Shown: piece after piece, positions 26,303 to 26,655 of the stretch | Layout of the letters: the number at the start of each line of letters is the position of its first letter | How positions within the stretch are numbered: position 1 is the first letter of the stretch | Virus record (IMG/VR): IMGVR_UViG_3300035698_021428 | Direction: 5' to 3' (one strand) | Source: a virus | DNA length: 49,956 bases | Position numbers and translations under genes: made by a program | Notes under the pieces: generated by a model | What the model saw: the letters and a program-made list of their open reading frames with translations, nothing else | Databases searched by the model: none | What the model was told of the DNA's origin: nothing

Positions 26303-26655
26303 GGGGGCGATATGGAATCGCTTCAGTAGGGTAGGAAGGATTGTTGCGAGCCGGGGAACCATGCTTAGGCCCCGTAAAAAAGTATGGAATAATTAGTTGC
26401 CAACAGCAACCCACTCCGCATCGCTGCTTGACAGCGGTGCCTGCAAGTCCTGAACGCCGATACGGGATACGCAGAAGATTTTCGGCTGGTCGTCTGAACA
26501 ACTGTTTCAACCAACAGACGATGAGATAAAGGATGAGACCGCTCCCTGTCGCAGACTGTCGCTGGTCGGCTAGGGGCTAAGATAAAACATCGACTACGCT
26601 CGTAGAAACGCCCAACAAACTACTGAACACGGCGGTTCGAATCCGCCCGCCTCCA
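26303..26655 (+). ncRNA. ssrA: tmRNA (transfer-messenger RNA)
   Basis: 5' gggggcg pairs with 3' cgcctcc, including G3.U70 (tRNA-Ala identity); T-arm ggcgg-ttcgaat-ccgcc; discriminator A; internal tag ORF GCC AAC AGC AAC CCA CTC CGC ATC GCT GCT TGA = ANSNPLRIAA* after a ...UUAGUU resume context; followed by a terminator. Confidence 0.7.

Follow-up and report, generated by a model that had tools for sequence, protein, structure and literature searches.

The virus record IMGVR_UViG_3300035698_021428, whose whole stretch of 49,956 nucleotides we call the window, contains a genuine, intact gene for a standard one-piece transfer-messenger RNA (tmRNA, encoded by ssrA) at positions 26303-26655. The RNA encodes the peptide tag ANSNPLRIAA, which has an altered end. 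We consider it likely that this is a functional tmRNA of a marine phage of ~0.5 Mb, that it was captured from a Planctomycetota-like host, and that it supplies trans-translation by way of host factors.

An earlier note, made from the letters of the window, had placed a tmRNA gene of ~350 nt with this tag at the same positions. The ARAGORN run and the Rfam scan that it proposed agree with it on coordinates and tag. ARAGORN calls a tmRNA at 26303-26655 on the plus strand with the tag ANSNPLRIAA* and with tag codons at gene positions 97-129. Rfam family RF00023 matches 26303-26658 over the full model (positions 1-374 of 374) with 129.6 bits (gathering score, 47; E=1.7e-50). The measured length is 353 nt. 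The note had also described a tRNA-Ala-like acceptor with G3.U70, a canonical T-arm 3' end, a UUAGUU resume context and a reading frame ending ...RIAA-TGA, and each of these can be read directly in the sequence.

Anatomy, conservation and transcription of the tmRNA gene

The elements of the gene and of its transcription unit are as follows.

26303-26655, plus strand: tmRNA gene (ssrA), standard one-piece form, 353 nt from G1 to the discriminator A (ARAGORN, RF00023)
26303-26309, plus strand: 5' strand of the acceptor stem, GGGGGCG, which pairs with 26648-26654 and holds G3 of G3.U70 (sequence)
26352-26387, plus strand: pseudoknot 1 (PK1), with stem 1 CGGGG (26352-26356)/CCCCG (26370-26374) and stem 2 CCAUGC (26359-26364)/GUAUGG (26382-26387)
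26393-26398, plus strand: UUAGUU directly 5' of the resume codon GCC, invariant in the phage clade and common to Planctomycetota tmRNAs
26399-26431, plus strand: tag reading frame GCC AAC AGC AAC CCA CUC CGC AUC GCU GCU UGA, encoding ANSNPLRIAA and a stop
26418-26440, plus strand: helix 5, with strands GCAUCGCUG (26418-26426) and CAGCGGUGC (26432-26440) and the loop CUUGA, which holds the stop codon
26441-26575, plus strand: PK2-PK4 region, stems found by eye, all with standard pairs
26631-26654, plus strand: T arm GGCGG UUCGAAU CCGCC (26631-26647), then the acceptor 3' strand CGCCUCC (26648-26654)
26260-26289, plus strand: putative weak sigma-70-like promoter, CTGACG-18 nt-GATAGT, ending 13 nt before G1
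26664-26696, plus strand: intrinsic terminator downstream of the tmRNA, a stem-loop ending ...AUCCGCAAGGAUGCGGG followed by UUUUCUUUU (terminator scan)
26158-26195, plus strand: intrinsic terminator closing the upstream major vault protein (MVP)-like gene, a 12-bp stem with a T run (terminator scan)

The tRNA-Ala-like domain consists of the 7-bp acceptor stem GGGGGCG/CGCCUCC with the alanine identity pair G3.U70, the T arm and the discriminator A. The gene does not encode the 3' CCA; its terminus reads ...CUCCA followed by uuu. Upstream of the resume codon, PK1 forms an H-type knot of the classic kind. Ten sense codons extend from this GCC at 26399 to the UGA at 26429-26431, which is positioned in the loop of helix 5, while the 9-bp helix itself contains the final tag codons. 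The minimum free energy fold (z = -2.1) forms helix 5 and also recovers helix 2 and the nested pseudoknot stems.

Within the PK2-PK4 region, the stems drawn by eye are CUGC/GCAG, UCC/GGA and GCCGA/UCGGC for PK2, UCGUCUG/CAGACGA and GUUUC/GAGAC for PK3, and GCUCC/GGGGC for the outer stem of PK4. The Rfam model aligns the nested stems. Knot strands can be drawn for PK2 and PK3, and a second stem was not identified for PK4. A 91-aa antisense open reading frame (ORF) with a TTG start at 26235-26510 overlaps the tmRNA and was dismissed as a mechanical ORF.

Relatives of this RNA occur in other large contigs. The closest relative of the MVP homolog encoded directly upstream, with 57% identity, is on a 498.6 kb Tara Oceans contig that has a tmRNA with the tag ANSNTLRMAA at the syntenic position. 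An exact search of IMG/VR for the full tag gives no match, and a shorter probe was needed. The 18-mer UUAGUUGCCAACAGCAAC, which comprises the resume context and the first four tag codons, finds IMGVR_UViG_3300020429_000529 (498,568 bp) and _000539 (488,051 bp), and a relaxed tag pattern finds further tmRNA copies in metagenomes. The phage clade defined in this way has six distinct tmRNAs: that of the window and those of loci L001/L004/L115, L003/L118, L114, L116 and L119. The five relatives are all full-length RF00023 matches (101-119 bits).

Base pairs were counted on a six-sequence MAFFT alignment in the five helices that are in register: the acceptor stem, the T stem, inner helix 2 and both PK1 stems. 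In helix 2a, helix 5 and PK2-PK4 the sequences are not aligned in register, and covariation in PK2-PK4 is not countable because the alignment of the relatives is unreliable there. Every one of the 28 counted pairs is kept at 100% in the six tmRNAs, and eight have changed on both sides in a compensatory manner. No shuffle out of 500 reaches the real values, and slid controls are 32-54% paired. Three of the seven fully conserved acceptor pairs are compensatory, with G3.U70 invariant. The T stem has compensatory changes at three of its five pairs, and each of the two fully paired PK1 stems has one.

The tag reading frame is the best-conserved part of the RNA. Identity between copies is 85-100% (28-33/33 nt) in the frame and 51-73% in the remaining RNA; for the window against its relatives, the corresponding values are 28-29/33 nt and 51-59%. 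The five other tmRNAs differ from one another at a single tag-frame position, a synonymous GCU/GCC change, and the copies with this tag, ANSNTLRMAA, are 69-73% identical outside the frame, apart from two near-identical pairs. The Ile/Met difference of the window (AUC versus AUG) falls within helix 5, where the opposite strand differs too (CAGCGG versus CAGCC), so the peptide and the helix appear to be constrained together. These patterns of substitution show that the tmRNA structure and the tag frame are under selection.

The gene also appears to have its own transcription unit, because it is flanked by terminators both upstream (26158-26195) and downstream (26664-26696). The L001 gene likewise has a terminator at the equivalent downstream position. 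Relatives L003, L114 and L119 have a clear promoter, TTGACA-17-TA[AG]ACT, ~22 nt upstream of G1. The promoter candidate of the window is below the threshold of the promoter scan, which returned only TTGGCG-18-TATCAT at 26172-26201. Taken with its conservation, these signals mark the tmRNA as a maintained, independently transcribed gene and not a remnant.

It is common for temperate phages to carry 3' fragments of ssrA, and prophage ends in IMG/VR often abut host smpB-ssrA. The sequence at 26303-26655 might by this precedent be a decaying pseudogene, or an attP-type remnant that is kept only as an integration site. The gene is full length rather than a 3' fragment, every helix checked is maintained by compensatory changes in six diverged copies, it has its own terminator and its relatives their own promoter, and no integrase was found in the window. 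Such a remnant is strongly disfavored and almost certainly not what the window contains.

The altered end of the tag

The tags of the phage clade follow the pattern ANSN[PT]LR[IM]AA, compared with ANSN[FY]ALAA in cellular tmRNAs. One codon has been added, the aromatic residue is lost, Arg occupies position -4 relative to the C terminus, and Ile or Met replaces Leu at -3. All six phage-clade tags have Arg at -4, so the small residue that is usual there (Ala, sometimes Ser) is absent. The hydrophobic-Ala-Ala end is kept as a variant of LAA, ...IAA in the window and ...MAA in the relatives. The earlier note had called the tag close to, but not, the usual ...ALAA/LAA, a description that fits the added codon, the Arg and the retained end alike.

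In the 57 cellular tags compared, -4 is occupied by Ala or Ser (by Leu in ...LQAA) and -3 by L, F, V, I, Y or Q; Arg occurs at neither position in any of them. One, ADDNFAIAA, ends in IAA. None of the tag strings looked up occurs in the searchable literature. Because the host-like ANSN start and the hydrophobic-Ala-Ala end are both kept, the tag probably still acts as a ClpXP-type degron. On the simplest reading this function is kept, and the change at -4 is either tolerated or has a modulating effect. In E. coli, position -4 is said to matter for ClpA rather than for ClpX.

A second huge-phage lineage also has an Arg close to the end of its tag. Its tmRNAs are located as follows.

L075, 7153-7496: tmRNA of the second lineage
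L201, 6707-7048: tmRNA of the second lineage
L209, 680-1022, minus strand: tmRNA of the second lineage

L075, which like L201 represents a contig of 188.6 kb, is one of 80 MVP-bearing IMG/VR loci and has this tmRNA in full length (RF00023, 107 bits); the gene is 2.5 kb from the MVP homolog and adjoins tRNAs. The tag is ANDNVDFPQYALRAA, ending ...YALRAA with Arg at -3, as assigned by homology in L075 and L201 and by ARAGORN in L209. ARAGORN misplaces the tag in the former two, giving ATHEQTRRGFSAR, and for the related 190 kb contig L209 it gives the homology-based tag. The two copies of this lineage, L075/L201 and L209, have 86% RNA identity overall, and their tag frames differ by two synonymous changes only. 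The lineage is not specifically related in sequence to the window clade, and a nucleotide search of INPHARED phages with the L075 tmRNA gave no match. Both lineages are found on IMG/VR huge-phage contigs, match RF00023 over its full length and have an Arg inserted into a canonical tag end. They differ in that the second has a 15-residue ANDN-type tag in which Arg at -3 replaces the key Leu, whereas tags of the window clade have 10 residues with Arg at -4. Arg-modified tag ends may thus recur in huge phages.

If these changes are adaptive, huge phages may re-program the output of tmRNA: the RNA would still rescue ribosomes, and the Arg-containing end, fixed independently in two unrelated lineages, would have been selected to alter protease or adaptor recognition and thereby the fate of tagged proteins. 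Recognition by ClpXP, ClpAP or adaptors might be weakened, which would avoid clogging the protease or spare phage proteins. Alternatively, tagged proteins might be handed to a different, possibly phage-encoded, protease. In the window clade, a re-programmed tag might act together with the amber-suppressor tRNAs of the phage, which would create extra nonstop ribosomes on host mRNAs.

Several observations fit selection of this kind. The altered end is conserved rather than drifting in the five diverged ANSNTLRMAA genes, a second unrelated lineage has its own Arg, and the compared cellular tags have none at these positions. The last three residues (LAA) of the ssrA tag are the critical ClpX determinant (review PMC9382460). 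Other observations are at odds with it. The IAA and MAA ends of the window clade are conservative versions of LAA, one of which exists in the cellular ADDNFAIAA, and the residue at -4 reportedly bears on ClpA and not ClpX in E. coli. Conservation of these codons could reflect RNA constraint, as they are inside helix 5. The tmRNA has no linked gene for a protease or an adaptor, and two lineages are a small sample. We therefore regard re-programming as an unlikely, if testable, alternative to a tag that remains an ordinary degron. If Arg at -3 or -4 does alter degradation by ClpXP or ClpAP, then nature would offer a set of degron variants in phage tmRNAs, and viruses would be seen to edit the protein quality control of their hosts, beyond boosting translation.

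Phage assignment, proposed host and neighboring genes

The window is very probably a piece of a phage genome. We assign it to a phage because of the IMG/VR label, the consistent sizes of related assemblies, its gene content and its protein links to curated huge phages. The earlier note had left two contexts open, a large phage carrying its own trans-translation RNA and a chromosomal ssrA locus acting as an island hotspot; the former is favored by what follows and the latter is not.

The neighborhood is syntenic with Tara Oceans contigs of 488-502 kb, two of which are filed as viral in IMG/VR. The order histidine kinase, two response regulators, a further gene, MVP, tmRNA, ORFan, porin and, after other genes, PARP recurs in the relatives at 40-60% amino-acid identity. 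Independent assemblies agree in size, with 498,568, 498,590, 498,610 and 498,618 bp for one genome and 487,973 and 488,051 bp for another, and these near-identical sizes are taken as a sign of complete replicons. Further relative contigs have 502,023 and 502,461 bp. Bins of up to 498 kb were reported in a Tara jumbo-phage study (PMC9123017). Many ORFs of the window have no family match, and matches to PHROG HNH endonucleases are present, as are a SpoU methylase and an HD-domain protein. The G+C content across the window is 36-45%. Nucleotide searches of INPHARED phages with the tmRNA and with 20 kb around it gave no match.

The gene could instead be the chromosomal ssrA of a Planctomycetota relative or of a bacterium with a small genome of ~0.5 Mb, with the tRNA arrays and odd genes forming an adjacent island. 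The RNA is indeed Planctomycetota-like, some neighbors are of cellular type (a histidine kinase, response regulators, a porin, a PhoD-like phosphatase and a pilin-like protein), and no virion gene was seen. An island of this kind might come with an integrase gene or an att duplication of the ssrA 3' end, as the earlier note had in mind. The 67 ORFs of the window include no integrase or recombinase family, and the 28-nt ssrA 3' end occurs only once in the window even with three mismatches allowed, which leaves no att repeat there. Also, smpB is not adjacent, unlike in three Planctomycetota loci; the window has dispersed tRNA genes and HNH endonuclease matches; most ORFs have no family match, and a search of 5.8 billion proteins finds just 3 homologs of one neighbor. 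IMG/VR files the relatives as viral, the G+C content of the window is 36-45% and that of the phage-clade tmRNA genes is below that of the 11 Planctomycetota ones, and the RF00023 score is below those of the cellular copies. A chromosomal locus is therefore very improbable.

The origin of the RNA was examined by searching GTDB (one genome per species, 185,579 species) with the 18-mer UUAGUUGCCAACAGCAAC. There are 28 matches; a tmRNA is present at the match in 11 loci, and all 11 are Planctomycetota (Pirellulales, Phycisphaerae, Isosphaeraceae and Planctomycetaceae) with the tag ANSNFALAA or ANSNYALAA. To avoid circularity, a profile of the phage clade from which the 18-mer and the tag had been removed was scored against Planctomycetota and 46 other cellular tmRNAs. 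With its 5' part, the top seven are all Planctomycetota (13-25 bits, with others at most 11), and with its 3' part the best match is a Phycisphaeraceae tmRNA (46 bits).

Planctomycetota ssrA genes (loci L005-L031) resemble those of the phage clade in their standard one-piece form of 347-364 nt, the shared 18-mer and resume context, the ANSN start of the tag and the absence of an encoded CCA. They differ in having a 9-residue tag, ANSN[FY]ALAA, rather than one of 10 residues, and overall nucleotide identity is only ~50-59%. The G+C content of the tmRNA genes is 53-54% in the phage clade versus 57-69% in the 11 Planctomycetota, RF00023 scores are 101-130 versus 146-159 bits, and smpB adjoins ssrA in the three loci mentioned above. 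The similarities suggest capture from a host-lineage ssrA followed by a one-codon insertion that placed Arg at -4. On balance we favor a Planctomycetota host, or capture from that lineage. To our knowledge few phages of Planctomycetota have been described, and a Planctomycetota-like ssrA would be a rare host clue for a clade of ~0.5 Mb marine phages.

Some observations weigh against a functional phage tmRNA of this origin. The promoter of the window gene is weak by consensus, and the RF00023 score of 129.6 bits is below the 146-159 bits of the cellular Planctomycetota tmRNAs. Virion hallmark genes (capsid, terminase, portal) were seen neither in the window nor in the pieces of its relatives that were fetched. 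SmpB was likewise not found in these sequences, in which ~10% of a 0.5 Mb genome is visible; in an SmpB scan of IMG/VR, the best 80 of 305 matches comprise only host genes at prophage ends, with related contigs absent. RNA similarity is the single line of evidence for the host, and the comparison panel is phylogenetically narrow, with many phyla absent. A LysRS search gave no host signal, its cellular matches being ~36-40% identical across phyla. Lastly, the MVP-bearing huge phages LR756500 and LR756501/LR756503 could belong to clades with other hosts.

The other genes of note in the window are these.

649-1803, plus strand: short LysRS-like class II synthetase, 384 aa, versus ~495 aa for cellular LysRS
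7887-8705, 20070-22745, 28757-30064 and 35848-38157: signaling and envelope genes
23437-26127, plus strand: MVP homolog directly upstream of the tmRNA, with Pfam Vault, Vault_3 and MVP_shoulder
42649-42720 and 45505-45577, plus strand: tRNA-CUA amber suppressors, 68% identical to each other, labeled 'Pyl' by ARAGORN

MVP homologs are found at 174 confirmed IMG/VR loci and in the curated huge phages LR756500.1 (462 kb) and LR756501.1 (735 kb). In 37 of the 60 MVP loci scanned (from L033-L112), tRNA genes lie within 10 kb of the MVP gene. There are at least three of them at 28 loci, with a maximum of 29, and at several loci tRNA-CUA suppressors are among them. We found no paper that describes vault-like genes in phages, and one Borg preprint mentions them in archaeal elements. 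The MVP gene of the window has an in-frame TAA at 23515-23517, where its closest homolog has Gln (...SYAHF*GL... versus ...SYAYFQST...). Possible explanations are a nonsense mutation, an assembly error, re-initiation at 23791 and read-through. The suppressor tRNAs of the window read UAG, not the UAA of this gene.

A protein with PARP catalytic and WGR domains is encoded at 31080-32729 on the plus strand, 5 kb downstream of the MVP and tmRNA genes, and is conserved in L114 (2124-3722, 52% identity). Eukaryotic vaults are built from MVP, a PARP and a small RNA, and the proximity of such genes in the window may be a coincidence.

The clade-specific ORFan at 27344-28564 on the plus strand is kept close to the tmRNA by all relatives, at 42-59% identity, and it is the neighbor with only 3 homologs noted above. 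It has no Pfam, NCBIfam or PHROG match. Its invariant motifs (HIHLPHG, GFDA and Y.EP), together with an alternating strand-helix pattern, suggest that it may be an enzyme; its AlphaFold2 model (pLDDT 45.8) is too poor for use.

The signaling and envelope genes listed above are of cellular type and encode a PAS histidine kinase, two response regulators, an OprO/P-like porin, a PhoD-like phosphatase and a prepilin-type protein. The histidine kinase, response regulators and porin are conserved in the relatives. With the porin O/P, PhoD and a weak PHO4 match at 18579-19538, a phosphate theme is possible.

The earlier note had placed the tmRNA amid tRNA arrays, aminoacyl-tRNA synthetase genes and suppressor tRNAs, and all of these are present: 10 ARAGORN tRNAs and one more Rfam tRNA upstream of the tmRNA, the LysRS-like protein, a HisRS-like Pfam match on one ORF, and the two tRNA-CUA genes. 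Relative L114 has a tRNA-CUA at 5005-5081, 3.5 kb from its tmRNA. The short LysRS groups with similarly short proteins of metagenome contigs, including an 80%-identical version on a 502 kb Tara contig, and its cellular homologs are 35-40% identical. Over-long tRNAs are predicted for Arg-CCU (88 nt, 2026-2113), Thr-UGU (83 nt, 6680-6762) and His (83 nt, 11160-11242). The Rfam tRNA missed by ARAGORN, at 7453-7553, is 101 nt long and has a ~30-nt insert after the anticodon region that may be an intron or an extra arm.

The window, in which no late genes are visible, shows no sign of stop-codon recoding: ORF coverage with standard stops is 86%, and 13 of the 43 long ORFs terminate in TAG. Two ORF pairs are in the same frame and split by a single TAA, 26945-27337/27344-28564 (at 27335) and 17553-17828/17835-18266 (at 17826). 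Together with the TAA inside the MVP gene, these pairs raise the question of occasional UAA read-through; no supporting homology was found across the TAA at 27335 or at 17826.

Proposed function and comparison with known tmRNAs

We infer the expression, charging, use of host SmpB and tagging outcome of this RNA by analogy with cellular trans-translation. The RNA would be transcribed as its own unit, and host RNase P would mature its 5' end. Its 3' end would be completed by the CCA-adding enzyme of the host, since the gene does not encode CCA. Recognition of G3.U70 would allow host AlaRS to attach alanine. Delivered by host SmpB and EF-Tu, the charged tmRNA would enter the empty A site of ribosomes that have stalled at the 3' end of a broken or read-through mRNA. 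Translation would resume at the GCC at 26399, add ANSNPLRIAA and stop at UGA, which would free the ribosome and mark the product.

The benefit to the phage is probably extra trans-translation capacity, which would preserve the ribosome pool through a long infection while host mRNAs are degraded. The phage also encodes many tRNAs and tRNA synthetases. Its two amber-suppressor tRNAs, and the one close to the tmRNA in L114, would fit a raised demand for tmRNA. Suppressor tRNAs reportedly increase SsrA tagging in E. coli, and trans-translation is said to support the growth of several phages.

An opposite role could also be envisaged, in which the phage RNA is a decoy or inhibitor that titrates host SmpB or blocks host trans-translation. 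This has been proposed for the tRNA-like-domain (TLD)-only molecule of mycobacteriophage DS6A (PMC4131195), and a similar molecule inhibits tmRNA (PMC11915505). The lack of an SmpB gene in the sequences at hand would be compatible with it. However, the whole mRNA-like region is kept, with PK1, helix 5 and stems that can be drawn for PK2-PK4, and the best-conserved part of the RNA is a tag frame with its stop codon, which a decoy would not need. A decoy is highly improbable, and a functional tmRNA that uses host factors remains the preferred reading.

The tmRNA genes of huge phages are already documented, and the gene of the window is ordinary in kind. Genes for tmRNA and SmpB have been reported in huge phages (PMC7162821, Al-Shayeb et al. 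2020), and Mar_Mega_1 carries a tmRNA (bioRxiv 10.1101/2021.07.26.453748). The tmRNAs of mycobacteriophages (cluster C, such as Bxz1) and of phage G have been catalogued (PMC4131195), and that of Bacillus phage G has the noncanonical tag AKLNITNNELQVA (PMC12484599). The searchable literature gave no match for the window clade, its Planctomycetota-like tmRNA sequence or its tag. The clade has in common with these systems a very large phage genome with many tRNAs and translation genes that also carries a tmRNA, as well as a noncanonical tag. It differs from those huge phages that also carry SmpB, none having been found in the window or in the fetched pieces of its relatives. What the present case adds is a well-supported example of an intact ribosome-rescue RNA in a virus, with base-pair covariation and a conserved tag, in a clade of ~0.5 Mb marine phages.

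The window tmRNA is also similar in architecture to E. coli SsrA (tag ANDENYALAA). Both have G3.U70, a long helix 2, PK1, UAGUN before a GCN resume codon, a 10-residue tag with a hydrophobic-Ala-Ala C terminus, a stop codon in the loop of helix 5 and, as far as the stems of PK2-PK4 show, three further pseudoknots. The T loop is UUCAACU in E. coli and UUCGAAU in the window. E. coli SsrA differs further in that it encodes CCA, has Ala at -4 and contains the SspB-binding motif AANDENY, whereas the tags of the window clade start with ANSN.

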